This document shows positions 17,162 to 39,306 of a stretch of DNA of 64,000 bases, in pieces. Below the pieces are notes generated by a model. The model was not told where the DNA came from. It saw only the letters and a list, made by a program, of their open reading frames with translations, and ran no database searches. A program made the translations under genes and the position numbers. Every line of letters starts with the position of its first letter. Positions within the stretch are counted from its first letter, which is position 1. The DNA is from a virus, in the IMG/VR virus record IMGVR_UViG_3300042923_001201, positions 30,473-94,472 of that record. One strand, given 5' to 3'.

Positions 17162-18367
17162 TTATTTTCCATTTTTCATTTCCTCCACACTTTTATTAAT
17201 AAGATTATTAAAATGAGTTCCATCTTTATACTTCTGCTGAATAATAGCATCGCGCAATAGCAATCTCATTTTTGGATAGGCCCCGGGGTGAGTCTCTAAG
17301 AACTCAACTTTTTGTTTTAGTTCTTCAGGCGAGCTCACATACAACCAATCAGGTACACCGTGGTATTTTACAAGTAAACGGTCTTCATCATAGGTTTCAT
17401 GGAAGAAAGGTATAATACCATGAGCTACAGCCTCCACCCATTTCCCGCTAATGTCGCCCTTAATAATAGGATAGCAAAAAGTATATTTAACTGAAGGGAG
17501 AATAGTCTGAAGTTCATCAAATGATACCGAACCCATAAATTTGCGTTCATTGCCTTTTTGTTGAGTTTCATCCCATTTTCCATATACTTTAATATCGTCA
17601 AAGTTATTAATACAAAAATCTTGAATTACTTTTATTCTCTTCTTATCATCGTACTGGTGGAAAAAAATCGAAAATTTTTCTGTCTTCGGTTTGTTAGGAT
17701 GTTTTAATTGACTGTCAAGCAAGTATTGAGTTTCTGCTGCAGCATATTTTAACTTAACAGTATGCTCGACCATTGTAACTTGATCTTCATAGGACTTCAT
17801 ACGTTTGATTTTAACTTCACCCTCACGAACTCCCAAACTAATCTTTTCAGGATTGATCATATCTCTCGCGGGCAATGGCATGTATCGGCCATCTGATGTG
17901 ATTGTTAGCCAATTAATACGCGATTCATTAAGATAATAAGTAATGGGAGAAACATAATTAACAAGAGACATAATAGGACGCCGTATGTCTTTTGTCGGAA
18001 GTTTAGTTTTTCGGTCCAGACAAAAAATTCGACCAGGAATGGAAAGGCTACACATCCCACCGTGAATAATACCCACATCAATCTCAACATCTTTTAATCT
18101 CTCCCATACCCAAGTTGTTGGGTCATCAGTTTTAGGGTTAAAGCCTTCCCAAACATCAATTACATTCTTATTAGGAAACCACTTATCATATGTTTCTTGA
18201 TTAATTCGACTCAAATCTGACTTGCCAATCATATAGTAAATATTCTGAGGATTAAGTCGTGCAAGCGCCGATAGCAATATAGGAAATTCGTTATTTCCTG
18301 CATTGTGACCCCACTTTGTTCTATTAAAATATGAAGACCTACCAATCTTACCAATAACTATTAACAT
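17162..18367 (-). CDS. GT-B fold DNA glycosyltransferase (T4 BGT-like), GT1
   Basis: C-terminus YTFCYP..ISGKWVEAVAHGIIPFFHETYD..LYVSSPEEL parallels BGT ITLRVWE..VMLIDEEFD..FYVNNRAEL; VYGKW motif. Confidence 0.65.
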   Translation of the reverse strand: MLIVIGKIGRSSYFNRTKWGHNAGNNEFPILLSALARLNPQNIYYMIGKSDLSRINQETYDKWFPNKNVIDVWEGFNPKTDDPTTWVWERLKDVEIDVGIIHGGMCSLSIPGRIFCLDRKTKLPTKDIRRPIMSLVNYVSPITYYLNESRINWLTITSDGRYMPLPARDMINPEKISLGVREGEVKIKRMKSYEDQVTMVEHTVKLKYAAAETQYLLDSQLKHPNKPKTEKFSIFFHQYDDKKRIKVIQDFCINNFDDIKVYGKWDETQQKGNERKFMGSVSFDELQTILPSVKYTFCYPIIKGDISGKWVEAVAHGIIPFFHETYDEDRLLVKYHGVPDWLYVSSPEELKQKVEFLETHPGAYPKMRLLLRDAIIQQKYKDGTHFNNLINKSVEEMKNGK

Positions 18368-19059
18368 GCTAAACCTCCGTTTTGATTTTGAATTTTAAAT
18401 TCTAACTCTTTTTTAATAAATTCTTGTATTTCTGAGAATCTATTAATAGTCATTTCAATTTTTTCTGAAGGATAGGTTTTTTCAAATCCTTTGGGTGTTT
18501 TTAGCATATATTTAATTTTTCTAGGTGTAATTGATAAAAATTTTGTAACTACTTTCATTAGGTCCTTATCAATTGAATTAACAAAATCTTTAATATCTCT
18601 TGTTTCCCACTCTCTAAATCTAACCCAAGGATTTGCACTTCCATTATCAATTAAAAATAATCTATTATTTTTATACCCATAATTGCCTGAGTGTCTGTCT
18701 CCATTATTTATAATAATATCAAATAGTGTTAATAATTTTGATTCAGTTTTTGTCTTTGTTCTTCCATCACTATTTGCTTTATCTGCAACTATAAACTTGT
18801 CTTCCCACCAATGAACTGAACAGTATTTATTTAGTCCGAATACATCTCCCGTATTAATTAATTCTACCTTATTTGTAGGAATACCTAGTGTCTTACCTAG
18901 TCTGTAAGCAAAACATTCCATTAGTGCCTCTTCAAAGTTTTCACCTTTAATCATTACCTTTTTGTCTTCAAATTTGCCAATAACCTTTGGTGTAATTCCT
19001 CCGTGGCTCTTTCTTGCGTCATTTTTTGACAATACAACTTCGATTTTACTTGAGTCCAT
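18361..19059 (-). CDS. HipA / PI3-4-kinase-like Ser/Thr protein kinase
   Basis: MIK, E.FAYRLG..LGIP, LFD..I.NGDRHSGN, LIDNG. Confidence 0.8.
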   Translation of the reverse strand: MDSSKIEVVLSKNDARKSHGGITPKVIGKFEDKKVMIKGENFEEALMECFAYRLGKTLGIPTNKVELINTGDVFGLNKYCSVHWWEDKFIVADKANSDGRTKTKTESKLLTLFDIIINNGDRHSGNYGYKNNRLFLIDNGSANPWVRFREWETRDIKDFVNSIDKDLMKVVTKFLSITPRKIKYMLKTPKGFEKTYPSEKIEMTINRFSEIQEFIKKELEFKIQNQNGGLAC

Positions 19060-19080
19060 TTTAATCCTCCTTATAAAATA

Positions 19081-19129
19081 AAAAAATCGTTATGATAAAT
19101 TATATACATAACGATTTTTTCTGTAAACC
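19081..19129 (-). promoter_or_regulatory. Class-2 promoter overlapping a 14-bp perfect inverted repeat (terminator)
   Basis: GGTTTACA-N17-TATAAT (-35 19122-19127, -10 19099-19104); arms AAAAAATCGTTATG (19081-19094) and CATAACGATTTTTT (19107-19120). Confidence 0.75.
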
Positions 19130-19138
19130 AGGATTCAA

Positions 19139-20596
19139 TTATTTATATAACTCTTTGAAATAATTATGTTTAAACTGATTGTCATACCAATCTTTGTTAA
19201 AATGTTCAGGTTTGACATAATATTCATAGAGTTCAAAGAATAAGTCTTTATAGGCTTGAGGGTATGTTTTAGCCCAAAGTACAGCTCGCTCAATATCCTC
19301 ATTGCTGCTAACTACAAGATGATTTTTAAATTTTTTAGGAATCTGAAGGTTATCAATGTCATAGTTATCCGCAATAAGTGGAATAACCCCGTTGAGCAAA
19401 GACGAATACATACGGAAGTTCAATGAATCATACTTGCCGTAAAAACATTTAAGGATAATTGTGAATCTATAATCTTTTTGCTCTTGATGATATTCTGCCT
19501 GTGAAACAGTAGGTTTTACATTTTTATTAAGTGAAATACTTTTAATAACTTCAAATGCCTTTTCATCTTTAATCTTTTTATTTTTAAATTTCTTTGTTTC
19601 TAACGGGTCTAAAATTTCACTCTGCGTAATAGTTGAAGTTCCATCAGTTTGAGTTCTAATTGTTGCATCAACCGATAGGTCATTGAAGAATCGAGTCCAA
19701 TCATGAAGCCTGTATGAAACATCATAAGGAAAAGTACCGCCAAAAATAAAGTCATGCTTTTTCTCCTCCAAAATAGTAGATAATTCGGCTATTGTAGGTT
19801 CTTCATTTCCATAAGCGTCTTGTAATTGTGCTGATGGAAACTCATGAAAGTCTCTCATAGGGCCTCGTTTATCATCCACGAAGTAAAAACACTTAACATT
19901 TTTCGTTAAGGGATTTACTTTGGCACTAAACGGGTACCAAATAGAGCTAGTGTCGTGAGAGAATGAGTAATGCCAAAGGTCTTTGTACTCTTTCATCAAT
20001 CTTATGAGCAGGTATAAAGGGTACATATTTCGTTGACTTATCATTCTGAAACTGAAGAATTGTTGTTCGCCGTTTAGTCTTCGTTGTGCAGTTCTTAAAG
20101 CGCCCGCAGATAACTTTTCACTTTTTTCATCATAAGGAATAATTTCGTGATTCCGTTCATATACTAGGAATAGAGCAGAAGTGAGAGTACCCACAAGATT
20201 GTTAAAAATCCAAGGCTCGCCAGAAATAAGGTTAGTAAAAAGCTCTTGCATATAAGAATAAGTATGTTGAAAAGCTTTCTTATCATCATAAAACAACTCC
20301 TGTTCTCCAATTTCCATCCTCATGAATTTACCAGCGGCATCAAGATTAATATAAATACAGTCTTCAAGTACAGGAATTTCTTGTGCAGCTTCCATCCAAA
20401 CTCCTTTTGAACTTGAGGATCGCGCAATCAAAAATACATTAAAATCTTTTTTAAGTATTTTTACAGTATTAAGAATATATGAATAAGATAGGAAATTCGT
20501 TTTCTTACTAAGGTTTCGTTCAAGTAGAAATAGCATAATATTTTTCTTACCAGGAATATACTTTTTATAGTTTACAATTTCATAAGTTTTGGACAT
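19139..20596 (-). CDS. GT-B fold DNA glycosyltransferase (T4 BGT-like), GT2
   Basis: DFIFGG..R, FTIIL..SLNFRMYSSLLNGVIPLIADNYD..LVVSSNEDI matches the BGT-type C-terminal pattern. Confidence 0.6.
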   Translation of the reverse strand: MSKTYEIVNYKKYIPGKKNIMLFLLERNLSKKTNFLSYSYILNTVKILKKDFNVFLIARSSSSKGVWMEAAQEIPVLEDCIYINLDAAGKFMRMEIGEQELFYDDKKAFQHTYSYMQELFTNLISGEPWIFNNLVGTLTSALFLVYERNHEIIPYDEKSEKLSAGALRTAQRRLNGEQQFFSFRMISQRNMYPLYLLIRLMKEYKDLWHYSFSHDTSSIWYPFSAKVNPLTKNVKCFYFVDDKRGPMRDFHEFPSAQLQDAYGNEEPTIAELSTILEEKKHDFIFGGTFPYDVSYRLHDWTRFFNDLSVDATIRTQTDGTSTITQSEILDPLETKKFKNKKIKDEKAFEVIKSISLNKNVKPTVSQAEYHQEQKDYRFTIILKCFYGKYDSLNFRMYSSLLNGVIPLIADNYDIDNLQIPKKFKNHLVVSSNEDIERAVLWAKTYPQAYKDLFFELYEYYVKPEHFNKDWYDNQFKHNYFKELYK

Positions 20597-20739
20597 TAAG
20601 CTTCCTCCTCAAACATTTCCATAGCATCACCATAACCGTCCCAATTATCAACTCCGCATGCTTGCAAACATTCTAATAGAGCTTGATCATTCAAGAGTTG
20701 TTCATATTTTTCCTTACTAATTCTTACTGTGTTATTCAT
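20596..20739 (-). CDS. 47-aa acidic protein, T3 gp5.9-like (not in ORF track)
   Basis: MNNTVRISKEKYEQLLNDQALLECLQACGVDNWDGYGDAMEMFEEEA*; RBS upstream; TAATG-coupled to GT2. Confidence 0.6.
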   Translation of the reverse strand: MNNTVRISKEKYEQLLNDQALLECLQACGVDNWDGYGDAMEMFEEEA

Positions 20740-20742
20740 TTG

Positions 20743-21252
20743 TTATTTAATCTCCTTTGTAGTTGATTTACAACATCTTAAACATCTGCTAATGGGTCCT
20801 GATTCAAAAATGGGTCCTCCACACCTACAGGTTTTAGTCTTGAACAAATCCATTAGTTCCTGGTAATCATCAACCAATGACTGTCTTCCCTGTTTTATAT
20901 ATTGCCTAATAACATCTGCCTGACAATTTTGACTTTTACCTTTAAAGATGTCATTAAAATCATCGAAACCTCTTGCATATTCAACAAGTTCAGGATTATT
21001 GTCTAAATAGTTTACCCATAACATCTTATACCATTGAGATAGAAACCTTTTATCATATCTTTTGCCATTTAATTCAATATGGGTGGGTTCTCTACCTTTA
21101 CCATCTTGCCAACCTATAGGAACAAAATCATCAAACCTTTTACAAGTTTGGTAGTGATTTTCTATGCTATCAAATCTTTTCCATGCAGTTATTTTTGCAT
21201 AAAAAGCAGAAAATCTTTTGTCACCTTTTGAAGAACATTCAAGTATCTTCAT
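20743..21252 (-). CDS. NADAR-like protein (resembles the DarT1-associated NADAR type)
   Basis: ILECSSKG..FSAF.A....SIE..YQ..K.F N-terminal motif; NCQA motif; C-terminal Zn ribbon. Confidence 0.5.
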   Translation of the reverse strand: MKILECSSKGDKRFSAFYAKITAWKRFDSIENHYQTCKRFDDFVPIGWQDGKGREPTHIELNGKRYDKRFLSQWYKMLWVNYLDNNPELVEYARGFDDFNDIFKGKSQNCQADVIRQYIKQGRQSLVDDYQELMDLFKTKTCRCGGPIFESGPISRCLRCCKSTTKEIK

Positions 21253-21635
21253 ATGTCCTCCTATATAAAATGAGAATTTTATTGCTATCATTTCCCTCTA
21301 ATTTGCTTATTAGGGCAAGTTAGAGGGAGCTAGATGAAGGTAGAGCTATTTAATCTCAACCTGAACGTCAATTTCAGCATTTTCATTAAAATAAATGGTT
21401 TTTAGGTCTTTTTCGACTTGTTTTGTAAATTCAACGAGTCTTTCATCAATTTGTTCTTGAGTTAACTGATTAAATATCTCTTTTTCTTCACCTTCGATGG
21501 GTTGAGTGACATTTACTTTAAAATAAATCTGTTTCATCTTATTTCCTCCATTTGTACAATTCGGACAATCAACAGGTTCAGCTAAAGGGCCACTACCATC
21601 TTCCCAACCACCTAAATCATTACAAAGTTTACATT

Positions 21636-22412
21636 TTACCATATGGCAATGTCCTTATCTATATTTTTAGCTTTTCTATAAGCATATTGTTGAGCCTCAG
21701 CTAAGGAATCTTTATCTCCGCAGTCAAACCATGGTGATGAAAGAAAATCAAAACTAAAACCTAAATTGTCAATATAATAATTAATTACATCTACAATTTC
21801 ATATTCGCCACGACTAGAAGGTTCTAGTCCTTCTATAATGTTCCAAACATTTCTATCGTATATTTGTACGCCACAAAACGCCAAGGATGATCCGGGAACC
21901 TCAGGTTTTTCCTCAAGACTGTGTACAGTTCCATTTAGTGGATCTTTATGTCCCCCACCCCAAAAGTTTAACACTGCAAATTTTTGAAGGTCCCTTATAT
22001 TTGTAAATTCTTTAACTGTAATAAATGCTCCACTATCATATTCATCAACAAATTTGTTAAGATCATCATATATAATATTATCTGCACAAAGAACAACAAT
22101 ATTATTATCTCTTGCAAAGTCTTTTGCCTGATACAAAGCATGAGCAACACCTTTTGGTTCATCCTGATAAAAGTATGTGAATTTACAACCATACTTTTCA
22201 CCCGACTTCAAATAGTCAATCGTTTCACCTGCTGATTTAACACCAAGTACAATTGCAATATCAGTAATTCCTGCGCTTACTAAATGCCACACTGAATACT
22301 CAATCATCAACTTGTCATAAACAGGCATCAAGAATTTGTTTGTTACATCAGTGAGAGGAGACAATCTAGTCCCTCTCCCTCCTGCAAGGATTACGCCTTT
22401 AAATTTACTCAT
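21636..22412 (-). CDS. Sugar-1-phosphate nucleotidyltransferase (RmlA-like)
   Basis: GVILAGGRGTRL.PLT, K.LMPVYDK, Q..PKG.AHA, EEKP, SSRGEYEI, WFDCG. Confidence 0.9.
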   Translation of the reverse strand: MSKFKGVILAGGRGTRLSPLTDVTNKFLMPVYDKLMIEYSVWHLVSAGITDIAIVLGVKSAGETIDYLKSGEKYGCKFTYFYQDEPKGVAHALYQAKDFARDNNIVVLCADNIIYDDLNKFVDEYDSGAFITVKEFTNIRDLQKFAVLNFWGGGHKDPLNGTVHSLEEKPEVPGSSLAFCGVQIYDRNVWNIIEGLEPSSRGEYEIVDVINYYIDNLGFSFDFLSSPWFDCGDKDSLAEAQQYAYRKAKNIDKDIAIW

Positions 22413-22999
22413 TTTTGTACCTCCACCATAATAATATCCTTGATATTAGCACGTTCTGCGGATACTCTGCCGATTTTATTATCTTCGAATACAATTACAT
22501 CTTCTCCACCCAAACCCAAAGTGTTTAGAGCAAGAATATATGGATCGGCTTCTGGTTTTGCTTTTTTAACACTTTCCTTCGTGATGATTAAAGACAAATA
22601 TTGAATAATCCCTAGTTTATCAAGAATTTGCTCAATCGAACCTCTACGTCCATTGGACACAACAGCAATTTTTCTACGACCATATTGTTGTTTGATAAGA
22701 TCAATTAAAATGGTATTGGGTACCATGTATTGATCAAGACATTGACCCAAAAACATTTTTTTGTCAGCAATGACCAATAACTTCATTGTTTCATAATTTT
22801 CATCATCAAGTAAAGACCTCATAAGGAAATCTCCACCAAATGGAGCACATGCATCAAATACTTCTTCTTTAAAAGGAATGTTATTTTTTTCAAATGCGAG
22901 TTTATATGCTTGTTTGTGACATTCCATAGTGTCAGCGAGGGTTCCATCACAATCAAAAAGTAGTGCTCGCTTGCCAATCATCATTTTTTCAAGATCCAT
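22409..22999 (-). CDS. HAD-family phosphatase (beta-PGM-like)
   Basis: LFDCDGTLAD, VVSNG, KPEADPY, VFED; RBS AGGAGG supports start 22999. Confidence 0.85.
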   Translation of the reverse strand: MDLEKMMIGKRALLFDCDGTLADTMECHKQAYKLAFEKNNIPFKEEVFDACAPFGGDFLMRSLLDDENYETMKLLVIADKKMFLGQCLDQYMVPNTILIDLIKQQYGRRKIAVVSNGRRGSIEQILDKLGIIQYLSLIITKESVKKAKPEADPYILALNTLGLGGEDVIVFEDNKIGRVSAERANIKDIIMVEVQK

Positions 23000-23327
23000 A
23001 CTAAAGTTCCTCCTATAATTTGCGCAGTTATTCTTAAAACATTTCAATTTCTTCATGGGTATACCATGAACTTGTCTACTATATTTTTCATAACAATAAC
23101 ACTTATTCATTTAAAGGTACCTAATTTCGGTAGTGCTATGTCCACCTGTCGTAGACGGAATAAAAGTTCCAATAATATCTTTTCTTTCTTTATAAACGAT
23201 ACAAACTGTAGCATAACTTATTGTATCGCCTGTTCTGTGAGAAAATTGAAGTATTTCAATATCAGGATTTTTATAAAAGAAATTGTTCATGTCATCTTCT
23301 ACGCACGACCGGCTACCACCAAAAATT

Positions 23328-24350
23328 TTAGTTTTGTACATTTTTCCATTCCTCCATAACTTGATTCAGGATTTCTATACCTATACAATAACAAATTTGC
23401 ATCGAATCAAAGTTTTCCTTTAATCTGAATGGAACCATTGAAATAAAGTGACTTGCTTCAAAAAATTTTGCCGCAATTTCCCAATTTAGTCCAACATCAT
23501 AATACTGAGGAATTACAATTTGAGCCATTTCATATAAGGTATTAAATTTTTCTACATTTCCTCGAATAAAATAGTCAACTCTATGATATTCCTCAAAAAA
23601 GTAATCACTATTTACAATATAATTCCCATCATAGATAAGATCATATTTACCATGACAAGATTGGAAAATCTTACTAATGTCATAATAAATACTGTCGGGA
23701 CCTTCTCCACGTGGGTCAATTACTTTCATATCCCAACCATCAGACAAAACATTCTGAAATGTAAAGTCTCCGTGAGATCTATACCATTTTTCTGGACGTA
23801 AAAAATTTAAAAAGTCTTGGTCGTTCGATATTTCCTCTATTAATAACCGAAGATTTTTTAATTTTCTACCGTTAATAATTAAGTAATCTTCCTCAAAAAG
23901 AGAATGATCCTTAATTTTTTCACATCTTTCAACCATCTTATCAAGATGTTTTTCTTTTATATAAGTATCTTTGTTTCCATCGTATGTTTCTGATTCAAGT
24001 GCAATTTTGGCGCCCAATGCAACCATATTGGACAGCGCCTCAAGGTGAAAATGTTCCAAGTCTTTTTCAATAAAAGTGTCTTTGAGAGTAGGCATATCTA
24101 AATATTCCATATCATAATAAGCTTTGTCCTTCTCAATAACGAACAAATTCACTTGAGGAAAAATTGATTCAGGGGAATAGTAATTAAATATCTTCATCCA
24201 TTCAAATTGGTTCTTTAATTTTTCGAGACCCAAAATATCATTATTTTTAGTGTTAACAATTTTCCTAACATAGGCTTGTTTATCTTTTACAATAAAGAAA
24301 GTTTCAGCCATTGATCCGCCTTTAAATTGTTTAATAATTTTAGCTTTCAA
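23328..24350 (-). CDS. APH/choline-kinase-fold phosphotransferase (putative sugar kinase)
   Basis: YDMEY, HGDFTFQN, IDPRG, YYDISK..QS..G.YD; TTG start behind RBS GGAGGT and the promoter at 24378-24406. Confidence 0.75.
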   Translation of the reverse strand: MKAKIIKQFKGGSMAETFFIVKDKQAYVRKIVNTKNNDILGLEKLKNQFEWMKIFNYYSPESIFPQVNLFVIEKDKAYYDMEYLDMPTLKDTFIEKDLEHFHLEALSNMVALGAKIALESETYDGNKDTYIKEKHLDKMVERCEKIKDHSLFEEDYLIINGRKLKNLRLLIEEISNDQDFLNFLRPEKWYRSHGDFTFQNVLSDGWDMKVIDPRGEGPDSIYYDISKIFQSCHGKYDLIYDGNYIVNSDYFFEEYHRVDYFIRGNVEKFNTLYEMAQIVIPQYYDVGLNWEIAAKFFEASHFISMVPFRLKENFDSMQICYCIGIEILNQVMEEWKNVQN

Positions 24351-24424
24351 TGTAGCACCTCCAAATTTATATATATCATTATATATAAATTGAATGAAGG
24401 TGTAAACCAAGATTAAAATTAATT

Positions 24425-24841
24425 TTATACTGCAACAGATTCAAGTTGACGGATTCTTTTACCTGTGTAAACCATATCTTCATCAAATACTTTGTTAAGT
24501 ACTTCAATAACAAAATCAATCAAGTTTTCGTTATATAGCTTGATTTTATTTTGAACAAAGTTACCTGAGATCTTCGATTGGATACTTGCTACTTTATTTT
24601 CGTAGGAAGGAAGTGTTTTGAGGCTTTCTTCAAGCATTACATCTTGTTTGGTATCAATATACAAAGTGATAAAAGAATTTTTATTCATTCGGATAGCTCC
24701 GATACCTTTTTGTCTTTCAGCAGTTTTCAACAATAACCAACCCGGTTTTTCAGCAAATTGTACTCTTACCTTGTCACCACATTCCATTTCGATGATTTCT
24801 TTTAGGATTCCGAGTTCTGCTTTATTGTTGTTAACTGTCAT
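24425..24841 (-). CDS. Hypothetical protein
   Basis: RBS AAGGAG; class-1 promoter at 24897-24925. Confidence 0.55.
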   Translation of the reverse strand: MTVNNNKAELGILKEIIEMECGDKVRVQFAEKPGWLLLKTAERQKGIGAIRMNKNSFITLYIDTKQDVMLEESLKTLPSYENKVASIQSKISGNFVQNKIKLYNENLIDFVIEVLNKVFDEDMVYTGKRIRQLESVAV

Positions 24842-25121
24842 TATTATCGCTCCTTCTAATTGGTTGTAATTTTTTGTATTTGCGTTCCATAGATTTATAT
24901 TATCATAGTAGAACATTTTTGTAAATAGTTTTGACTCGACTTTTTTTAATTGTTTTTAATTACTAAAATTTGCTACGACATTGTTATATTATTATATTAA
25001 ACCAATTTAACGTATTTTAAACATCATTTTCATAATTTAATTTTAACATTTTTCATAATAAAATTATATGATGAAATATTGTAAATATTCATAAAAATAT
25101 GTAAAAAAAATAAAGCAGTTT

Positions 25122-25508
25122 TTACACCGCTTTATTAATGTAACCTAGGCTAGGATCTTCTTGACGTAGGATATTTATGTTGTTTTTTTCGAGGTACATT
25201 TTCATTATCGTTTTTTCGTCAAGATCAAGGAAGATAGCTATGTTTGATAAAAATATAAAAATGTCAAGAAATTCCTTTCGCCCTTCTTCAATTTTTTTTT
25301 CTAATTCTTCTTGAGTTAGATGAGAATAGTCTACCCAAGGTTTGTGAAATGGCAATTCACGAAGCATTTCATATGTTTCTTCGATAAGGAACATAGAGTG
25401 AGTATGAATGAAATTCATTCTTTCCTCAATGGACATGTTTTCGCTGAATCCAAAACGTTTTTGAAATTCAGCCTGCATGTTAAGAACTGTTTGGAACGAC
25501 TTTTTCAT
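25122..25508 (-). CDS. All-alpha dimeric dUTPase/dCTPase (T4 gp56-like)
   Basis: MQ..FQ, EETYE, KPW, KEFLDI..F, Y.EKN..N..RQ. Confidence 0.8.
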   Translation of the reverse strand: MKKSFQTVLNMQAEFQKRFGFSENMSIEERMNFIHTHSMFLIEETYEMLRELPFHKPWVDYSHLTQEELEKKIEEGRKEFLDIFIFLSNIAIFLDLDEKTIMKMYLEKNNINILRQEDPSLGYINKAV

Positions 25509-26218
25509 CTTTTACCTCCGTTACTTTCATGCACTTTTAAGATGGGGACCATCAGAGTTTTCGTTAATATTTTCAATTTCATCTTCAACAAAAGATGAAA
25601 TTTCATAAGCAAAATCGTCCGCATCAGACAAGAAATCAGGACATGATGTTAATTCATAACCCGTCTCATCCAACACATTACTTAGTTCAAGTGCGACGGA
25701 AGCAAAGGCTTTTAATGCTGCCTCAAGTTTTTTTGCATTCTCTGCAGAAATTTTATTCATTAATTATCATGTCCCCTTGTCCATATCGGATTTTTGTACC
25801 TCATGGTACCATTTCACATTATTAATTATACATAGAATTAAACGACTTGTAAATACATAATTTACATTTTAATTTCATAATTTTAACAAAGTTAGTACTG
25901 TAGACGACTATTTTGTCGAAAGATTCGCTTTTAAGAAATTACCAACAATAATGAATAAATATACTAGCAGAAAAGTTTTAAACCAACTAATTTCAAAGTC
26001 TAAAGTAAAATTAAAAATAAAAGAAACAACGTATGAGATTGCCGCTGTTAATCCCGCATGAAGCAGAAGTAAACCCAGTGTTTTAATCAATTTCATTTAA
26101 TATTCTCCTTTGCAGACGATTGAGGAGATGGTCTACACCTCCATCAACGCCCTTTATGATTTTTTGTATATTATCATTATATATACATTCTAGCAATGTG
26201 TAAACCATTGTACAACCA

Positions 26219-29200
26219 TCAAATATTAACTTTTTGCATTCGTAGTTCCACATCATTTTTTGTAAATTTTTCAATTTTCATGGTAGTATGTCTATAGGCT
26301 GAGTCCTTATAAACTTTAGGTACAAATTCATCATTTCTTCTAAATCCAACGATTACAAGTTTAGTTCCACGTTTAAACCAAGAGTCATCTAATACAACTT
26401 TCTTCTCACCACTTGTATCAACTATCTTTTTGTCATAATGTAAAAATGTTCCTTTTGAATATTTAACTGGAACTACTCCATTTTGAGTTGAAAGATATAC
26501 AATATGCTTGTCCTTGTCCTTATCAACGACTGTGCCTGATATTGCTAATGTTTTATACTTGGGAGTTTTTCGTCCTCGCCAAACATTATAACCCGAAATT
26601 TCCATATGCTTCATGGTTGTAAAATCAGAAATGTCAAAGTATTTGCTTAAAGGAATATAGTCAAGCTCATGCTTGTCACTGTAAAATACAACAGTTTCCA
26701 TTTCCCATTGTTCTTTCGTACCCATACAATGTTTAACCCAAAGTTCCCTCATACCTTGTTTATTAAATTCAGCTGCAGCCTCATCAGATATAATCCATAA
26801 TCTCAAAGGCTCTATGAGTTTTTTATATGCCTTGTCAAACGATTTTTGATCAATAACTAATTTTCCATCATTGAAAGTGTACGTTACTTCCTTTGAATAT
26901 TTTTCCATAAATTCTCTTTCTATTTCTTCGTTCATAGGAACTTTTCCTCGACCAAAAATAGAGTTCCTGAAATTGTAAATTTCAACTTCCCTTGACAATG
27001 ATTCGGGCACAAAAGACAAGGCTCGTTGGATATTTTGCATGGTTAGTTTTTCCTTTTTAGGACTAACCATCTTAATAAAATCAACCATTAGTTCACGTCT
27101 GGGTCTGCCATCAATTTTGTCAAAACAGCCTGATTTAATAAGTGTAACAGTTTTACCTATGCTTAATGATTTTTCACTTTCTTCACCCTCAGATTCATTT
27201 CCAACACATCTTTCAAAGAAATCCTGGAATGATGTAAACGGTCGACGTTCCATAATAATTTTTACGCCATCCTTACCTAATCCTGAGATAGGTTTCAACC
27301 CGAACAATATCTTATTGTCCCTCTCAATAGGCGTGAAACCAAGTTTAGAGATATTAATATCAGGATTCAATACCTCTCCCTTCATATCACCTATAGCCTT
27401 TGCTACAGAGCCATAATCAGTATTACCTTCACGTTCACCAATCAGTCCCGAGTTGACAGTTAAACACGCAGTCTTCCAAAAAATTACGCCGTATTTATAA
27501 GCAAGATTAAGTTGCTGCATCAAGATCATTGTGTATCCTGCAATGTGTGGCAAACTGAAAGAATAACCAAACTGAGGTTTAAATAATACTTCCCAAACAT
27601 AGTTCATCATTGCGTCACTTGTATTCATTGCAATACATCCTGTTTTGAAGTCCCCATAGCATTCATCAATAATTTCTTTTTTCTTTTTAGCAACGCCTTT
27701 TCTTAATTTGTTCGCTCCTAACAAACCAAAACCTGAAATTCGTTTGTCCATCGAGATAAGCATCATGCTTTCCTGCGTATCACAGAGTCCGTAGTTTTCA
27801 AGTAGGTGTTCCTTTATAATTTCAACTTCAAAAACGTTTAATCCTGCTTTATACATTTCATCGTACCACTCTTGAATGTTTGCTTTATGTCTTACATATT
27901 TATCAAGTGGTGATTCTCCACTTTCTGCAGACAATCTCATGAGCGAGTTACCCGCAGATAACTCTTGGAAACTCATTGGTTTAATTTTTGACACAGCCTG
28001 TGAACCTACAGCCGAGTCAAATTGAAATGCATCAATTATCTGACCGCTGTGAAGTAATTTAAACATTTCTGGTGAATCCATATCAAGTACGTCAGGATGA
28101 AAGTATTTATTATAAGTGGCACGAAGTGAACCTTGCCATTCAATTTTACCTTCTTCAAGTAACAAATCCATTCCTGCACGGAGTTTGTCCAAGGCATTGA
28201 TTGTTAGGAAGTCAAGTTTCAATCCGCCTTGATAATCACTGTCTCCCATGTTAAATTGAGTTACTTCCTGACCACCCGTTGTCTTCATCATTGCATTTTG
28301 TGCTAAATATCCATCTCTAAATACATAAACACCACTTGCGTGAACTGATCGTCCTGAGACTAATCCTTCAATGGTTTCAATAGTTTCACGCAAACCTGGG
28401 TGTTTCTCAAATTCTTCCTGAAGTTCACGAACGGGCCTTTTACCCGTTTCTTCATCACCTTCAAGACATTCCTTCAATGTCCACATGCCTGTCTTATCTG
28501 TAGGAATCAAGTTAGCAATGTTTTGAGCTACATCATTATCAATTCCTAATCCTCGACAAGATGTCAAGATAGATGAACGAAGCTTTTCTGTTGACAAAGT
28601 ACAAATATTGAGGACGTTCTCATGACCAAATTCTTCTTTGGTTTTTGCCAAAATGTTAGCACGTTGAGAAGCCTCTGTATCAATATCAATATCTGGCAAT
28701 TCGGGTCTTTCATGAGTAAGATGTCGCCAGTGAGGTAGTTTATACTTAATTGGATTAATCTGAATTATATCCATAAGGTAACAAGTATAATAGGATGCAA
28801 CAGATCCACGGCTCACACCTACAAATGAAACTTCCCACATTATTTCAATAACCTTTTCTGTGAGTATATAATATGAAGAAATAGGTTGTCCTAATTGCTC
28901 ACTTGTCAACCAAAGCTCTTTCATTTCCTCATTTATACGTGCCAAATTTTCATCGTTATATTCCTGTTTTTTGTTTAAAAATCCCTTTTCACAAAGGAAC
29001 AAAAAGAATCTATCCTCAATATTAGGGCTATTAGAGAATTTTCTAATATAATCATATTGTTCATAAAAATCTTTGAATATATGCTGAATTTCAAATTCAG
29101 GTATCTTTCTATGAGGAATGACAGTCTCCTGCTTTAAATCAAATGGCTCAATCATATCCATAATCTCTAAAGTGTTATTCATCATCTCAGTTACATAATC

Positions 29201-30025
29201 GTCTGGCATATAGTCCTTAAAAAAAGAACGCAACTCATCTTCATCCATAAGATATGTTGTTGAATAAAAATCAGCAACTTCCCGCTCGCCATCATCAGAT
29301 CTTAAGTAATTTTCATGAATGATTGCTTGTTGTTTGTTAAGGTAATGAGCATCAGTAGCAACAATAGTTTTAATCTTGTATGCTTTTGCAATATGAGCTG
29401 CCATTTTATTATAAATTATTTGTTCTTCCTGATCTGATGGCTGTAACTCAATAAAAAAATCATCACCGAATATTTTTTGATACCAGGTAATGAGGCTGTG
29501 AATTTTACGCTTCGATTCAATATTATCAGTCTGTGCGTAGTCAATTACAGCTCTTGCAAATTCGGAACCAATACAAGCTGTTGAGGCAATAATATCACCT
29601 TTGTACTTCAATAAAGTTTCCTCGAAGTGGTCAGTGTATGTAGGTACACGTTCCATACCACGAAAGAAGAACGATTCTTCCCACGCCCTTGAACTCATTT
29701 CCTTTAGAGCCTGATAACCATTTAAATTTTTGGCAATAAGTAGAAAATGATAAAATCTTGTTCCTTCATTTTTTTCTTTTGCCGCAGCAACTTCCTCGCG
29801 GTTTACCAAATAGATCTCATTGCCTAAGGCAACCTTAAAGTCATCATATTTTTTTGCATATTTAATAGCTTCGACATGTGAAGATAAAGTGTCATGGTCA
29901 GTAATAGCGATACCTTTTAAACCTATTTTTCGTGCATAATCTATCAACTTATCAACTTTGTTAATACAGTCCTTTAGGCGGAAATTACTTCTGTCTGTAT
30001 GGTTATGAGATCCGAAATATGACAA
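26219..30025 (-). CDS. dnaE: DNA polymerase III alpha subunit (DnaE-like)
   Basis: PHP HNHT/AITDH, SRGS, PDIDID, HASG, KLDFL, GYSFSLPH, C-terminal OB fold. Confidence 0.95.
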   Translation of the reverse strand: MSYFGSHNHTDRSNFRLKDCINKVDKLIDYARKIGLKGIAITDHDTLSSHVEAIKYAKKYDDFKVALGNEIYLVNREEVAAAKEKNEGTRFYHFLLIAKNLNGYQALKEMSSRAWEESFFFRGMERVPTYTDHFEETLLKYKGDIIASTACIGSEFARAVIDYAQTDNIESKRKIHSLITWYQKIFGDDFFIELQPSDQEEQIIYNKMAAHIAKAYKIKTIVATDAHYLNKQQAIIHENYLRSDDGEREVADFYSTTYLMDEDELRSFFKDYMPDDYVTEMMNNTLEIMDMIEPFDLKQETVIPHRKIPEFEIQHIFKDFYEQYDYIRKFSNSPNIEDRFFLFLCEKGFLNKKQEYNDENLARINEEMKELWLTSEQLGQPISSYYILTEKVIEIMWEVSFVGVSRGSVASYYTCYLMDIIQINPIKYKLPHWRHLTHERPELPDIDIDTEASQRANILAKTKEEFGHENVLNICTLSTEKLRSSILTSCRGLGIDNDVAQNIANLIPTDKTGMWTLKECLEGDEETGKRPVRELQEEFEKHPGLRETIETIEGLVSGRSVHASGVYVFRDGYLAQNAMMKTTGGQEVTQFNMGDSDYQGGLKLDFLTINALDKLRAGMDLLLEEGKIEWQGSLRATYNKYFHPDVLDMDSPEMFKLLHSGQIIDAFQFDSAVGSQAVSKIKPMSFQELSAGNSLMRLSAESGESPLDKYVRHKANIQEWYDEMYKAGLNVFEVEIIKEHLLENYGLCDTQESMMLISMDKRISGFGLLGANKLRKGVAKKKKEIIDECYGDFKTGCIAMNTSDAMMNYVWEVLFKPQFGYSFSLPHIAGYTMILMQQLNLAYKYGVIFWKTACLTVNSGLIGEREGNTDYGSVAKAIGDMKGEVLNPDINISKLGFTPIERDNKILFGLKPISGLGKDGVKIIMERRPFTSFQDFFERCVGNESEGEESEKSLSIGKTVTLIKSGCFDKIDGRPRRELMVDFIKMVSPKKEKLTMQNIQRALSFVPESLSREVEIYNFRNSIFGRGKVPMNEEIEREFMEKYSKEVTYTFNDGKLVIDQKSFDKAYKKLIEPLRLWIISDEAAAEFNKQGMRELWVKHCMGTKEQWEMETVVFYSDKHELDYIPLSKYFDISDFTTMKHMEISGYNVWRGRKTPKYKTLAISGTVVDKDKDKHIVYLSTQNGVVPVKYSKGTFLHYDKKIVDTSGEKKVVLDDSWFKRGTKLVIVGFRRNDEFVPKVYKDSAYRHTTMKIEKFTKNDVELRMQKVNI

Positions 30026-32623: not shown

Positions 32624-32628
32624 TATAT

Positions 32629-35548: not shown

Positions 35549-35796
35549 GTTTGCTCCTTAATGTATTATAGTTTTAAAAGGTTCAATTTTAAACCCAAAC
35601 CAATCTTCATATTTTTCTTCTCCCATGAAATAGTCTGTAACGTCCTTTTTATAAAGATTTCCATTGATAACCATTACAGCAAATAATCTACCACCTTCAC
35701 TCATTAGTCTGAACGTTTCCATTAAAATCACCTCCTATAAATATATTAACATAGATTCTATCAAATGTAAATAGAAAAGACCCAGAATTTTCCGGG

Positions 35797-36063
35797 TCAT
35801 TTTAATGAGTTTATAATTCCTTGAATTGTTGTTTTAGTTACAAAACCTGTTGTCCTTTCAAACGGCAACCCATCACGCTCAAAAATCAACGTTGGAACAC
35901 TTGATACACCATAGTCCGTTGCGAGACTCATTCCTTGTTCATCGTCAAGGGCCACTGTTATGAATTCAACGTCTTTGTTTTCTTTTTCAAGTTCTTCAAT
36001 GGTTGGTTTAAGTATTTTACAAGGTTGACACCATGAAGCAGTAAATCTAATTACTTTTAACAT
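35797..36063 (-). CDS. trxA: Thioredoxin
   Basis: FTASWCQPC, GVSSVPT. Confidence 0.9.
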   Translation of the reverse strand: MLKVIRFTASWCQPCKILKPTIEELEKENKDVEFITVALDDEQGMSLATDYGVSSVPTLIFERDGLPFERTTGFVTKTTIQGIINSLK

Positions 36064-36223
36064 ATTAGTTCTCCTCTGCTGCATCTAATTACTTTAGGTT
36101 GTTCAGCGATTGTAGGAACAAACAAAATTGGACCTACAAAAGCCAATATGATCATCAAACTCAAAATGTGTCCTTTCATAACGTCGCTCCTTTGGATTAG
36201 GGAGGGTTTCCCCTCCCACATGA

Positions 36224-37432
36224 TTATACTGTAAGTGCTTGTTTTTTATCTTTGACTGTATCCATTTTCTTCGTAAGCAAGAACTCTTCAGTTGTAAATT
36301 CAGTCAGTGTTTCTTTTGTATGATGCTGAAATTGAACTCGGGTATCTTCGAATTGCGTTGTGCTTTCACGTTCGCCACGAAGTGCAGCAAGGACCTCGCC
36401 GCTAGCCCATTCAAAATATTTAGCAGGTACGCCTTGAGCAAGGTGACGAATGATTTCCTTATGAGGAAGAATTTCAAAGGTGTCAGGGAATCCCATCAGA
36501 CGCGCATATTCACGAATTGTAAACTGACGATTGTGAATTGGATGAATAAATGAAGAATAACCTGTCATTGACGGCGCTTGTTTATCAGGATTAGGACGTT
36601 GCGAAGATTTATCCCAATATCCAAGGTCGTTGTTTTGTTTGTACAACTGAGTTGTCAGAGCCTTTTTAACTTTTTCTGGCAGAGTTGGCTCATATTTTGC
36701 GTAATTGTCACAGATTACCCAGTTTACAGTTTTGTGTCCACCTTTTACGAATGGTACATCAGGGAAGATATATTCGACTTCTTGATAAGGACGATTGGGA
36801 ACAAGATCATGATTCAAAAACGTTCCAAGTTCTACATCATACAAATCTCCAATAATTTCCTTAACTGTCGTTGGGACATCTGTTTTGCCCATGTGAAGTG
36901 TAGGAATTTGAGGGAAAGCATCTTTGCGCCATCCAATAAAGAATGTCCGTTGACGTTTCATTGCCACATTATGGTACATACCAAACTCACGAATGATCGT
37001 AAAGTTGTAGTTTGGCAGGTTCTTAATGAAATCATCAAGAATCGGTTTACCTGTAGTGATCAGTGTTGGAGCATTCTCGTACATAAACGCTCGAGGTTGA
37101 ACGCCTTTAACAATGTTCATATACCGATATTGATGACAGTTTGGACCCTTTTCATGAGATTGTCCACCGCGTACACCCAGAGAAAGCCCTGAACATGGCG
37201 GATTACCATAAAGCAAATCATAATTTTCTTGACGAAGTTTTTCAAGATATTTGCTATTTTCCCATACAGAAGGGGGAACCATAGGAACTTGAGGATAGTT
37301 ATGAACAAAGTGCATTCCATTGTCTAAATACATGTCGTCCGTTAGCTCCAAAATTTGAGTAGGTGTATACCCGTTATTCATTACACCAATACTTGCGCTA
37401 CCTGCAAAAACAAATGCCCCTAATACCTTCAT
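36224..37432 (-). CDS. C5-cytosine DNA methyltransferase fold with atypical SAM-binding motifs
   Basis: Catalytic motifs present (GNPPCSG, YENAP, KRQRTF, REYARLMGFP); motif I is AFVFAGSA and motif X is LAQGVP. Confidence 0.8.
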   Translation of the reverse strand: MKVLGAFVFAGSASIGVMNNGYTPTQILELTDDMYLDNGMHFVHNYPQVPMVPPSVWENSKYLEKLRQENYDLLYGNPPCSGLSLGVRGGQSHEKGPNCHQYRYMNIVKGVQPRAFMYENAPTLITTGKPILDDFIKNLPNYNFTIIREFGMYHNVAMKRQRTFFIGWRKDAFPQIPTLHMGKTDVPTTVKEIIGDLYDVELGTFLNHDLVPNRPYQEVEYIFPDVPFVKGGHKTVNWVICDNYAKYEPTLPEKVKKALTTQLYKQNNDLGYWDKSSQRPNPDKQAPSMTGYSSFIHPIHNRQFTIREYARLMGFPDTFEILPHKEIIRHLAQGVPAKYFEWASGEVLAALRGERESTTQFEDTRVQFQHHTKETLTEFTTEEFLLTKKMDTVKDKKQALTV

Positions 37433-37731
37433 TAATTAATTCCTCCATTTTTGTATTGTTCTACTAGACTTTCAAGATTTTCAAAATCAACAGTCCAACC
37501 ATAATTTAGAATGCTGACCATAGGATTGGTTTTCAATCCTAACTCATCATTATATTTATCTTTAAAATAATCAATCTTTTCTGTAATTTCATCACAAAAG
37601 TTAACAATTAGTTCAGGTTTCTTTTTATTAGGCAAATTCATAACAACGCCAATATATCCAACTTTATATTTTGATTTTCGTTCGAGAAAAGTGATGAAAT
37701 CTTCTTTTGGTGTAGTACATTTTTCATTCAT
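37432..37731 (-). CDS. Conserved hypothetical phage protein
   Basis: PELIVN..KIDYF..KYNDEL motif; tightly packed between the TS homologue and the MTase fold. Confidence 0.55.
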   Translation of the reverse strand: MNEKCTTPKEDFITFLERKSKYKVGYIGVVMNLPNKKKPELIVNFCDEITEKIDYFKDKYNDELGLKTNPMVSILNYGWTVDFENLESLVEQYKNGGIN

Positions 37732-38760
37732 TTATTTACCTCCTATTGTTTTTAATTGTAAGGCATAACTTCTATATTCATTAGTAATATAAGGAAGGAA
37801 CGCTTTAAACTCTCCTTCATTTGCACCTAATTTTCTATAATTATACATTACAATCAAAGCAATAACAGATCTCCACCAAGAGTTTTCAATATTTTCAATT
37901 GAAATCATAAACACATCAAGCAACGCATCAATTTGAGCCTTTTTATAAGTTCTTGACGCATGTTCAAGAAGAGCAATTTTTGACATTAACCCGTTAAAAC
38001 CATCAAGGGACACAAGTGGTGAGCCATAATCAATATCTTCATATGTTTTGAAATCTGATTTAATCAGGTTTTTAAAATATTCTATATCAGATTCATAAAT
38101 ATGAAGTGACACAGCAGTATGAGTATATTTTCCAACATCAATGCCCAACCAACCCGCAATAACATGCTGAAACATAATAAAGTTAGGGATGTCATAGATT
38201 GCACCTTTGTGCAAATCATTACTTCTCATAGCGACATACATATTAAGTTTACCTTCACGAACTGTGAAGTTAAAATAGTTCGTACAAGGAATATCTTTAG
38301 AGTAATTTCCATTTTCATGGATATAATTATCTCGGTCAGGATCAAAAATAACCATTGAAGCTTGACGTGAAAATGGGTCATTTTTCAATTTTTTATAAAC
38401 TTCAAAGAATTGATCAATTTCACCATTCCAATTTCGCAGACGTTCACCATAAGCGCCATTTAAAATGCCAGGTTCATCTTCGTCCTCAAAGTTTCGCCAA
38501 TTTGCATTATAATGAGCAATTTCATCAAGATTGTTTGAACCTCTTAACATCCATAGTGCCTCAGCTAGTTGGAAAGTATGGTTGCCTCGACGTCCCGTAG
38601 GAACTGTTAAAAATTTTCGAGGATTAGTAATAACAATAGTAGCAGGGCTCAACTCAAGTGTTTTTGACCCACGGGGTGCAACCTCAACCCCATGAGCCAA
38701 AATTTCTTCAGCGGCCTTTTTATATACTTCATCAAAAGATTCTCCAATGATTAAGTGCAT
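37732..38760 (-). CDS. Thymidylate-synthase-fold dCMP hydroxymethylase-like enzyme
   Basis: AYG.R, DPFSRQA, KDIPCT, MRSND...GAIYD (Asp at the TS Asn177 / T4 gp42 Asp179 position), SLHIY. Confidence 0.8.
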   Translation of the reverse strand: MHLIIGESFDEVYKKAAEEILAHGVEVAPRGSKTLELSPATIVITNPRKFLTVPTGRRGNHTFQLAEALWMLRGSNNLDEIAHYNANWRNFEDEDEPGILNGAYGERLRNWNGEIDQFFEVYKKLKNDPFSRQASMVIFDPDRDNYIHENGNYSKDIPCTNYFNFTVREGKLNMYVAMRSNDLHKGAIYDIPNFIMFQHVIAGWLGIDVGKYTHTAVSLHIYESDIEYFKNLIKSDFKTYEDIDYGSPLVSLDGFNGLMSKIALLEHASRTYKKAQIDALLDVFMISIENIENSWWRSVIALIVMYNYRKLGANEGEFKAFLPYITNEYRSYALQLKTIGGK

Positions 38761-38808
38761 ATCGGACCTCCATCGTTTTGTTTGATATATCATTATACAT
38801 AGAAAATT

Positions 38809-39306
38809 CTACACTGTGAACAGAGTTTGTAATATTTTTTCTACATTTTCGTCAATATTCTCGTCAGTATTAATTGTGATTTTTGGCAAAGTAGAGTCTT
38901 TGTATATTTCCTCAATCTTATTATAACAATAATGAAAATGCTCGGGTTTTACAAAATCTTCGCCTCGTTCAGCGATTCTCTTGATGATCGTTTCAAACGG
39001 AGGTTGAAGGTGTACAAGAAGGACATTAAACTTCTCGATTAGTATTCTCTCGAGGTAAGGAAAATAGTCTGCCTCATATCCACGATAGAGTGGAGCATAT
39101 ACTCGCTCACCTTCGAAAAATCTATCCTTAATTACTGAATAATCATTATCCTTAATACTATTCAAATATTCTAACTTACCATCAATATATGATTTTACAG
39201 GGCCGTGGTGTTCAATTGGAAAACCTGTTTTTTCACTGAGAGCATTAGCGATAGTGGACTTACCGGCTCCATCAGAACCGATAAGTATAATGAAATTATT
39301 TTTCAA
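38809..39306 (-). CDS. Deoxynucleoside-monophosphate kinase (thymidylate-kinase-like)
   Basis: GSDGAGKST, DRF, RIAERGE. Confidence 0.8.
   Translation of the reverse strand: MKNNFIILIGSDGAGKSTIANALSEKTGFPIEHHGPVKSYIDGKLEYLNSIKDNDYSVIKDRFFEGERVYAPLYRGYEADYFPYLERILIEKFNVLLVHLQPPFETIIKRIAERGEDFVKPEHFHYCYNKIEEIYKDSTLPKITINTDENIDENVEKILQTLFTV

Follow-up and report, generated by a model that had tools for sequence, protein, structure and literature searches.

Does an uncultured phage encode the means to replace its cytosines with a sugar-bearing base, and if so, which base would it be? The DNA that raises this question is a 64,000-nt stretch (the window), corresponding to bases 30473 to 94472 of an IMG/VR virus record of 94,472 bp, rated complete by CheckV. 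An earlier reading of the window, hereafter the original prediction, grouped a thymidylate synthase (TS) homologue with a nucleotide kinase, a nucleotide pyrophosphatase, sugar-activation genes, two glycosyltransferases and an odd methyltransferase-like protein, and proposed that they form a new cytosine-hypermodification pathway. We find it probable that the phage replaces cytosine with 5-hydroxymethylcytosine (5hmC) and then glycosylates this base, yielding glycosyl-5hmC DNA. This core of the proposal, including the use of a phage-made nucleoside diphosphate (NDP)-sugar, is supported by three diagnostic residues in the TS homologue, by fold and profile matches of the glycosyltransferases to the DNA beta-glucosyltransferase (BGT) of phage T4, and by the co-occurrence of the genes across unrelated phages. 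The claim of a new pathway is not sustained, because hydroxymethylation of the T4 type is combined here with the sugar-activation logic of phages RB69, DLP3 and HY126 (PMC13326640), and nearly all of these genes have counterparts in Bacillus phage G.

Active-site signature of the thymidylate synthase homologue

The TS homologue carries the motif ...KDIPCT...MRSNDLHKGAIYDI... and was aligned with proteins that included T4 gp42, SPO1 gp29, phage G gp319 and RB69 gp48. Note that the database gene call begins at M12 (position 38760), which is the start used in the original prediction. In viral TS homologues, by E. coli numbering, C146 is the catalytic cysteine, replacement of L143 by Asp or Glu accompanies hydroxymethyl instead of methyl products because the acidic residue admits water, N177D shifts the substrate from deoxyuridine monophosphate (dUMP) to deoxycytidine monophosphate (dCMP), and D169N distinguishes the flavin-dependent 5-hydroxy-dCMP synthases found in RB69, DLP3 and other phages, all tested examples of which have Asn (PMC13326640). 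The equivalent residues of the phage enzyme are C170 (in IPCTN), D167, D201 and D193, respectively. C170, D167 and D193 are invariant among 121 database homologues, and Asp occupies the N177 position in 118 of the 121, the three Asn exceptions all being SPO1-like.

The Asp that the original prediction had noticed where dUMP enzymes have Asn is therefore D201, and it is shared with T4 gp42 and with MilA but not with SPO1 gp29, which has Asn. The motifs side by side read MRSND...YDI in the phage enzyme, MRSND...NDY in T4 gp42, MRSQN...LDF in RB69 gp48 and NRSND...ANL in SPO1 gp29. Retention of the Asp169 equivalent argues against a 5-hydroxy-dCMP synthase. The best PDB match of the TS homologue is the CMP hydroxymethylase MilA (E 4e-29), but this closeness does not discriminate between activities, because MilA is also the top PDB match of RB69 gp48 and DLP3 gp80. 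Among annotated phage proteins, SPO1 gp29 is one of the closest (36–37% identity), and a long C-terminal extension is present in both.

A separate ThyX, which the original prediction had named as the source of thymidine monophosphate (dTMP), is indeed encoded in the window and is accompanied by a thymidine kinase for thymidine salvage. Phages with hydroxymethyluracil in their DNA show the opposite arrangement to keeping a dTMP supply of their own. Because of the C170/D167/D193/D201 signature, together with the separate ThyX and thymidine kinase, the TS homologue is predicted to be a dCMP hydroxymethylase.

Predicted glycosyltransferases, sugar activation and nucleotide supply

Two putative GT-B glycosyltransferases (GT1 and GT2) would complete the modification. 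The GT1 family comprises 328 cluster representatives, and a profile of 66 members, run against all PDB sequences, matched T4 BGT at E 6e-10 as its sole hit at E <0.001, with fucosyltransferases next at E 0.007 and weaker. An AlphaFold model of GT1 (predicted local distance difference test [pLDDT] score 95) was aligned without a prefilter to 48,161 representative chains, and the best of these was again T4 BGT (Z 22.5, root-mean-square deviation 3.6 A over 310 residues), followed by the next GT-B enzyme at Z 20.4, with T4 alpha-glucosyltransferase at Z 17.5. For GT2, which has no Pfam, PHROG or PDB sequence match, the model placed T4 BGT first both with Foldseek (E 9.5e-8) and with VIA-align (Z 18.7, followed by SenB at 15.8 and a glycosyltransferase of phage HY126 at 14.8), and an ESM Atlas look-up agrees with the BGT-like reading. 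A C-terminal segment is common to GT1 and GT2 (E 2e-5). Plain searches of either sequence against the PDB gave no match, neither protein individually reached the Pfam model for T4 BGT (PF09198), and GT2 shows no similarity to the alpha-glucosyltransferase of phage G. T4 BGT is thus the nearest solved structure of both enzymes, as the description of two BGT-like glycosyltransferases had implied, and it ranks above the cell-wall enzymes TarM, BshA and PimA for both. GT1 and GT2 are predicted to transfer sugar from an NDP-sugar to 5hmC in DNA.

Co-occurrence provides the strongest argument that the glycosyltransferases act on 5hmC. The neighborhood survey across related phages found GT1 homologues in seven cultured-phage records from three unrelated lineages, all seven with a TS carrying Asp at the N177 position (Asp-type TS) within 0–3 kb. 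Enterococcus phages 9183, Planchet and TJE4 (Denvervirus) have an operon of kinase, TS (YDI), dUTPase-like gene, small HAD gene, nucleotidyltransferase–kinase fusion and glycosyltransferase; in 9183 this six-gene cassette (NC_055907.1, 28004–32956) is annotated merely as thymidylate synthase and hypothetical proteins. The glycosyltransferase lies directly upstream of the TS (PYDV) in Agathobaculum phages AB434P2 and P3, and a T4-like enzyme (SDFMCTN...PNDL) lies ~2 kb upstream of it in Pseudoalteromonas phage XG4. In a fragment of a much larger phage genome (G007), 18 kb span a TS, a YorR-like kinase, a kinase–nucleotidyltransferase fusion and a GT2 homologue, and 12 metagenome contigs appear in both the TS and the GT2 match lists, where contigs were equated by identical size as a proxy. 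In phage G, ~15 kb from gp301 to gp319 encode the methyltransferase-like gp301 (46% identical to its counterpart here), the T4 alpha-glucosyltransferase-like gp306 and gp313, the nucleotidyltransferase gp309, the HAD protein gp310, the sugar kinase gp311 (45%), the YorR-like kinase gp315 (42%), the dCMP deaminase gp317 and the orthologous Asp-type TS gp319 (41%). Note that a single TS protein used as the locus query recovered distant fragments only, and that it was the alignment query that found relatives.

The kinase, HAD hydrolase and nucleotidyltransferase genes proposed to supply the sugar donor were all confirmed and are adjacent, and the HAD gene occupies the position of phage G gp310. 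The sugar kinase matches the AfhE-like kinase domain of RB69 (RB69p052) at E 2e-5, and the nucleotidyltransferase matches RB69p053 at E 2e-6. Relatives of the sugar kinase bear the JGI label 'thiamine kinase-like', its structural neighbors in the ESM Atlas are often kinase–nucleotidyltransferase fusions, and its profile retrieved protein kinases alone from the PDB, at a marginal score (E 0.003). Such fusions are present in P0364, G007, Enterococcus 9183 (gp047) and G002, the last being one of two uncultured relatives of the phage (G001, 68 kb; G002, 94.7 kb) that are syntenic with it over most of the genome. The AfhE/AfhF module of HY126 begins with an APH-like kinase that adds a phosphate at the anomeric carbon of a sugar-5-phosphate; the distal phosphate is next removed by a HAD phosphatase, and a MurU-like domain finally makes the UDP-sugar (PMC13326640). 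The block in the window appears to be a split and distant relative of this module as found in RB69, DLP3 and HY126. Searches for SIS and SIS_2 domains (arabinose-5-phosphate isomerase) gave no match in the 94-kb genome although control genomes matched, which argues that the sugar is probably not arabinose derived from ribulose-5-phosphate. G002 and G007 use the fused kinase–nucleotidyltransferase, and G002 is without a homologue of the HAD hydrolase. The sugar module therefore appears to have been swapped among lineages, with the core of TS, kinase and glycosyltransferase kept.

A near-consensus promoter, TTTACA-N17-TATAAT, precedes the modification blocks on the minus strand at 26204, 25853, 24406, 19127 and 16958 (with TTAACA at 16958), and its repetition suggests that these genes belong to one temporal class. 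The copy at 24406–24378 precedes the sugar block and falls inside the longest open reading frame of the sugar kinase, so the true start of this gene is probably near 24350. Far from the sugar block and near ThyX, a 123-residue small HAD protein (51220–51591, minus strand) is similar to the AfhF-like phosphatase RB69p051 (E 2e-6). The RefSeq label 'phosphoheptose isomerase', which 9183 gp046 and SPO1 gp30.2 also carry, looks wrong for RB69p051.

Two parts of the proposed nucleotide supply stood only in part. The T4 gp56-like dCTP/dUTPase of the original prediction is an all-alpha nucleoside triphosphate (NTP) pyrophosphatase but is only weakly gp56-like: it scores 22.5 bits against a Pfam cut-off of 22.9, resembles gp56 over its last 45 residues only (E 7e-6), and has no similarity to Enterococcus 9183 gp045. 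A second NTP pyrophosphohydrolase, similar to the MazG-like DR2231, is an alternative candidate; the dCTPase could be either protein, and neither assignment is firm. As for the deoxynucleoside monophosphate kinase, a protein of this general kind does lie directly upstream of the TS gene, but the alignment with T4 gp1 covers the P-loop alone (E 0.006), so orthology to gp1 was rejected, and the best solved relative is YorR of SPbeta. Homologues of this P-loop kinase adjoin the Asp-type TS in G001, G002 and Enterococcus 9183 and lie near it in phage G and G007. A YorR-like 'nucleotide kinase' is also found beside the TS homologue in arabinosyl-5-hydroxycytosine (arabinosyl-5hoC) clusters (DLP3 gp78, RB69 gp45).

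Table 1. Positions in the window of the genes discussed, with the matches or other evidence behind each assignment.
Feature	Position	Strand	Evidence
TS-fold enzyme, predicted dCMP hydroxymethylase	37732–38793	-	353 residues; Pfam PF00303 Thymidylat_synt E 1e-29
YorR-like P-loop nucleotide kinase, predicted 5hm-dCMP kinase	38809–39306	-	PHROG 761 E 3e-26; PDB YorR 2axp E 1.7e-7
GT1, GT-B glycosyltransferase homologous to T4 BGT	17162–18367	-	Profile, AlphaFold model, co-occurrence
GT2, GT-B glycosyltransferase most similar to T4 BGT	19139–20596	-	AlphaFold model, pLDDT 88
APH-fold sugar kinase	23328–24410	-	HGDxxxxN and IDPRG invariant in 33 homologues
HAD hydrolase, beta-phosphoglucomutase family, predicted sugar-phosphate phosphatase	22409–23110	-	HAD_2 E 1.5e-24; TIGR02009 E 4e-25
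RmlA-like sugar-1-phosphate nucleotidyltransferase	21636–22412	-	PF00483 E 3e-43; rmlA_long E 8e-55, below its cut-off
Conserved 163-residue protein between pyrophosphatase and sugar kinase	24425–24916	-	No family match; homologues at same place in G001 (60%) and G002 (53%)
Small all-alpha NTP pyrophosphatase (128 residues), candidate dCTPase/dUTPase	25122–25508	-	dUTPase_2, sub-cut-off; PHROG 173 NTP-PPase E 1.5e-11
Second MazG/PRA-PH-like NTP pyrophosphohydrolase, alternative dCTPase/dUTPase candidate	15314–15871	-	PF01503 E 9e-14; PDB 3nl9 E 1e-38
PI3/4K/HipA-like small kinase (232 residues)	18361–19059	-	HipA_2 E 1.8e-5, below cut-off; motifs GDRHSGN, IDNG
C5-cytosine-methyltransferase-like protein	36224–37432	-	PF00145 E 1e-20; non-canonical motifs I and X
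99-residue protein between TS and methyltransferase-like genes	37432–37731	-	phrog_3915 E 3e-15; homologue at same place in G002
DnaE-type replicative polymerase	26219–30025	-	DNA_pol3_alpha, PHP and finger domains
ThyX, separate dTMP source	52761–53474	-	Thy1 E 1.6e-48
Thymidine kinase (thymidine salvage)	58909–59475	-	PF00265 E 2.5e-23
Tyrosine integrase	2078–3052		74% conservation in G001 and G002
ParM-like gene	60898–61764		

The proposed pathway weighed against its alternatives

The pathway that we propose is deduced at each step from gene context, sequence and predicted structures. First, the deoxycytidine triphosphate (dCTP) pool would be lowered, and dCMP returned, by one or both of the MazG-like pyrophosphatases; the TS-fold enzyme would convert this dCMP with methylene-tetrahydrofolate and water to 5-hydroxymethyl-dCMP (5hm-dCMP). 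The adjacent YorR-like kinase would form the diphosphate and a host NDP kinase 5hm-dCTP, the substrate to be incorporated by the phage DnaE polymerase, with ThyX and thymidine kinase keeping thymine canonical. From their own promoter, the APH-fold kinase, the HAD phosphatase and the RmlA-like nucleotidyltransferase would make the NDP-sugar starting from a host sugar phosphate, likely by way of the sugar-bisphosphate and the sugar-1-phosphate, as in HY126 AfhE/AfhF. The two BGT-like enzymes would then attach the sugar to the 5hmC of the DNA; they would differ in linkage or sequence context, or one would place a second sugar on that added by the other. DNA modified in this way would be protected from CRISPR-Cas and restriction enzymes.

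The TS enzyme might instead install another C5 group on dCMP, be it a hydroxyl (giving 5hoC, as in RB69, DLP3 and HY126) or a methyl (giving 5-methylcytosine, as in Xp12), in which case the glycosyltransferases would use 5hoC or have no DNA substrate. That the sugar-activation genes and the YorR-like kinase are closer to the arabinosyl-5hoC clusters than to T4, and that RB69 gp48 and DLP3 gp80 share MilA as best PDB match, speaks for this alternative, which we nevertheless judge unlikely: the enzyme keeps D169 in the RSND of T4 gp42, where all tested 5-hydroxy-dCMP synthases have Asn (RSQN in RB69 gp48), and its L143 position holds Asp, the hydroxymethylase state, rather than the bulky hydrophobic residue of methyl-forming enzymes. 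Arabinosyl-5hoC in particular is also disfavored by the missing SIS-type isomerase. Formation of 5hmU by a dUMP hydroxymethylase like SPO1 gp29, followed by glycosylation or some other modification, seems very improbable; despite the close relationship to SPO1 gp29 and the shared extension, the residue at the N177 position differs, retention of ThyX and thymidine kinase would oppose replacement of thymine, and genes of the 5-HMUDK and aGPT-Pplase types were not seen in scans of the window. A Tet_JBP search of the phage genome was silent, but it was equally silent on control genomes and is therefore uninformative.

It is also conceivable that 5hmC is made but left plain, with the glycosyltransferases and NDP-sugar genes serving some other acceptor, such as a virion protein or the wall teichoic acid of the host. 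Glycosyltransferases for teichoic acid are known from some prophages, this phage has an integrase, and the cell-wall GT-B enzymes TarM, BshA and PimA match the models at Z 12–19. We consider such a target decidedly unlikely, however, since T4 BGT comes first for both enzymes and is the only PDB profile match of GT1 at the threshold given above, since GT1 homologues sit beside an Asp-type TS in three unrelated lineages of cultured phages, and since the genes are embedded among those for replication and nucleotide metabolism, under the same type of promoter.

Several observations weigh against glycosyl-5hmC as the product. The dCTPase assignment is weak, as seen in the sub-cut-off Pfam score and the 45-residue match to gp56, and the kinase encoded beside the TS is no orthologue of gp1, its 5hm-dCMP substrate being predicted. 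GT-B folds are common, the lead of T4 BGT over other GT-B enzymes is 2–3 Z units, and TarM-type wall teichoic acid glycosyltransferases appear lower in the structure match lists of GT1 and GT2. The D169 and L143 rules are empirical and derive mostly from Straboviridae, so that a distant family could differ. The contig is of an uncultured phage and is listed in a single sequencing run, a soil-metagenome DNA run that is probably its source, with no RNA run listed; a contig cannot itself show base modification. Lastly, a conserved gene resembling C5-methyltransferases is hard to reconcile with full replacement of cytosine, because the C5 position would already be substituted and a normal C5-methyltransferase would lack a substrate in phage DNA.

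The odd C5-methyltransferase fold noted earlier in the TS operon is real. The protein keeps motif IV with its PC dipeptide (NPPCSGLS), motif VI (YENAPTL), the RxR of motif VIII (KRQRT) and an RE..R.MGFPD motif, which are conserved in seven family members, but its motif I (F-x-GS-x-x-IG) is 2 residues shorter than the canonical FxGxGG...G and its motif X reads AQGVP where GNxVP is canonical. Both variants are conserved in seven proteins of 37–78% identity (from G000, G001, G002, phage G [gp301], G008, G009 and G010) and thus do not reflect decay. All seven genomes have an Asp-type TS, and among the carriers, besides phage G, are three further records of large or jumbo phages, of which two are complete and the third is a fragment of 177 kb. 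Judged from these motifs, the covalent-catalysis residues appear to be kept and the cofactor pocket rebuilt.

The small PI3/4K/HipA-like kinase has its own promoter (19127–19099), and its stop codon overlaps the start codon of GT1, with which it is predicted to be co-transcribed. It is conserved in G001 and G002 only; no homologue was found in phage G, G005, G007, G008 or Enterococcus 9183 by a search that had no positive control. Its substrate might be the sugar on the DNA, or its role might be an unrelated one. We attach a small, though not negligible, likelihood to the idea that the final base goes beyond simple glucosyl-5hmC, with the methyltransferase-fold protein, this kinase or both performing an undescribed DNA-level reaction on 5hmC or its sugar to give a new hypermodified cytosine. 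Possible examples would be C6-activated exchange or installation of the hydroxymethyl group at cytosines left unsubstituted, or addition of a phosphate to the sugar carried by the base.

Genomic setting and relation to known systems

Almost all genes of the window between 5 and 60 kb are on the minus strand. The replication block encodes the DnaE-type polymerase, topoisomerase II subunits A and B, a RecJ-like nuclease, DnaB, primase, class II ribonucleotide reductase, PhoH, ThyX, thymidine kinase, DNA ligase, RusA and a sigma factor; a thioredoxin (35797–36084) and an SprT-like metalloprotease (45388–45894), possibly a DNA–protein crosslink protease, are also within it on the minus strand. The label 'SPbeta-like, temperate-type' does not hold. 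DnaE is nearest to that of Geobacillus phage GR1 (54%) and of Staphylococcus SEP9-like siphoviruses (45–47%), not SPbeta, and the nearest relatives overall are GR1 and the SEP9-like and Enterococcus 9183-like siphoviruses. A megablast search with positions 36000–41000 against the phage collection gave no match. A scan of the 185,579 species-representative genomes of GTDB found no close copy and no TS relative above 45% identity, nor indeed above 42%, and so pointed to neither a host nor a prophage. Enterococcus phages 9183 and Planchet were virulent at isolation yet keep an integrase and have been called 'ex temperate' (PMC11210271). The recombinase and par gene said to lie near the pathway both exist, as a tyrosine integrase and a ParM-like gene, but modification of a prophage during lytic growth only is unsupported, because the Enterococcus relatives were isolated as virulent phages and the scan of species-representative genomes found no close copy.

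Other genes of the window merit mention in their own right. A NADAR-domain protein between GT2 and the nucleotidyltransferase (20743–21291, minus strand; PF22397 DarT1-associated NADAR antitoxin, E 1.3e-9; phrog_9995), absent from G001, G002 and G007, may counter DarT defences by taking ADP-ribose off DNA. Beside the integrase and an M15 peptidase lies a fusion of a GH26 mannanase with a PA14 domain (3092–4546, plus strand), an unusual glycan degrader for a phage lysis or adsorption region. An RtcB RNA ligase (6814–8007), which suggests repair of tRNA cleaved by host anticodon nucleases, and an ATP-dependent DNA ligase (11195–12481) are both on the minus strand. An adjacent pair comprising a nicotinamide phosphoribosyltransferase (589 residues) and a phosphoribosyl pyrophosphate synthetase-like protein (283 residues; 55825–58445, minus strand) looks like phage NAD+ salvage, possibly countering NAD-depleting defences.

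The glucosyl-5hmC of T-even phages is made by the T4 dCTPase gp56, the dCMP hydroxymethylase gp42, the deoxynucleoside monophosphate kinase gp1, and alpha- and beta-glucosyltransferases. Shared with T4 are the TS signature (Cys, acidic L143, Asp169 in RSND, Asp at N177), a nucleotide kinase together with an all-alpha NTP pyrophosphatase, two candidate DNA glycosyltransferases nearest to T4 BGT and, as proposed here, a base change before replication with glycosylation after it. Unlike in T4, the TS enzyme is 24% identical to gp42 and extended at its C terminus by ~100 residues, the kinase is YorR-like rather than gp1-like, the glycosyltransferases are only ~12–14% identical to BGT, and the phage would activate its own NDP-sugar, whereas T4 takes host UDP-glucose. 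The polymerase is of the DnaE type, the host would be a spore-forming Firmicute, and the C5-methyltransferase-like and PI3/4K/HipA-like genes are additional.

The arabinosyl-5hoC pathway of RB69, DLP3 and HY126 comprises a 5-hydroxy-dCMP synthase, a YorR-like kinase, AfhE, AfhF, an arabinose-5-phosphate isomerase and GT-B transferases (PMC13326640). The window resembles it in the YorR-like kinase adjoining the TS homologue, in having several GT-B transferases, and in its APH-fold kinase, HAD phosphatase and MurU/RmlA-like nucleotidyltransferase, for which homology is distant. It differs in that Asp169 is kept, so that 5hmC is predicted instead of 5hoC; in that kinase and nucleotidyltransferase are split, as opposed to the fusions of G002, G007 and Enterococcus 9183; in a HAD protein of the beta-phosphoglucomutase family rather than the small AfhF type; and in having no SIS isomerase. 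Phage G, whose orthologous cluster was described above and whose alpha-glucosyltransferase homologues are already in print (PMC6024577, PMC13216743), is by contrast a 497-kb myovirus with two T4 alpha-glucosyltransferase-like enzymes in place of the BGT-like ones, with a dCMP deaminase, and with no PI3/4K/HipA-like kinase detected in the search mentioned earlier. MilA, of mildiomycin biosynthesis (PDB 5b6d), likewise has Asp at both diagnostic positions (L143 and N177) and is extended at its C terminus, but its substrate is the ribonucleotide CMP and it serves a Streptomyces antibiotic pathway rather than a phage replication module. We conclude that the strategy is the anti-restriction strategy of the T-even phages and that the logic of sugar activation is that of the arabinosyl-5hoC work; what the window offers is a well-supported variant, not a new pathway.

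In the literature searched, no experiments were found that report 5hmC or glycosyl-5hmC in phages infecting Gram-positive hosts, and the modified-base phages of Bacillus hosts found there (SPO1, SP8, SP10, SP15, PBS1) alter thymine or uracil. The question can be tested directly, because the cassette is carried by cultured phages, namely Enterococcus 9183, Planchet and TJE4, Bacillus phage G and Agathobaculum AB434P2, of which Planchet was isolated and tried as a phage-therapy candidate against vancomycin-resistant E. faecium. DNA of this kind resists many restriction enzymes, can bias library preparation and nanopore base-calling, and may be a target for type IV restriction systems. If confirmed, the pathway would define two BGT-related families of DNA glycosyltransferases and a split form of the AfhE/AfhF module, and it would extend cytosine replacement with glycosylation from the T4-like phages of Gram-negative bacteria to the widespread ~90-kb siphoviruses of Firmicutes and to jumbo phages.

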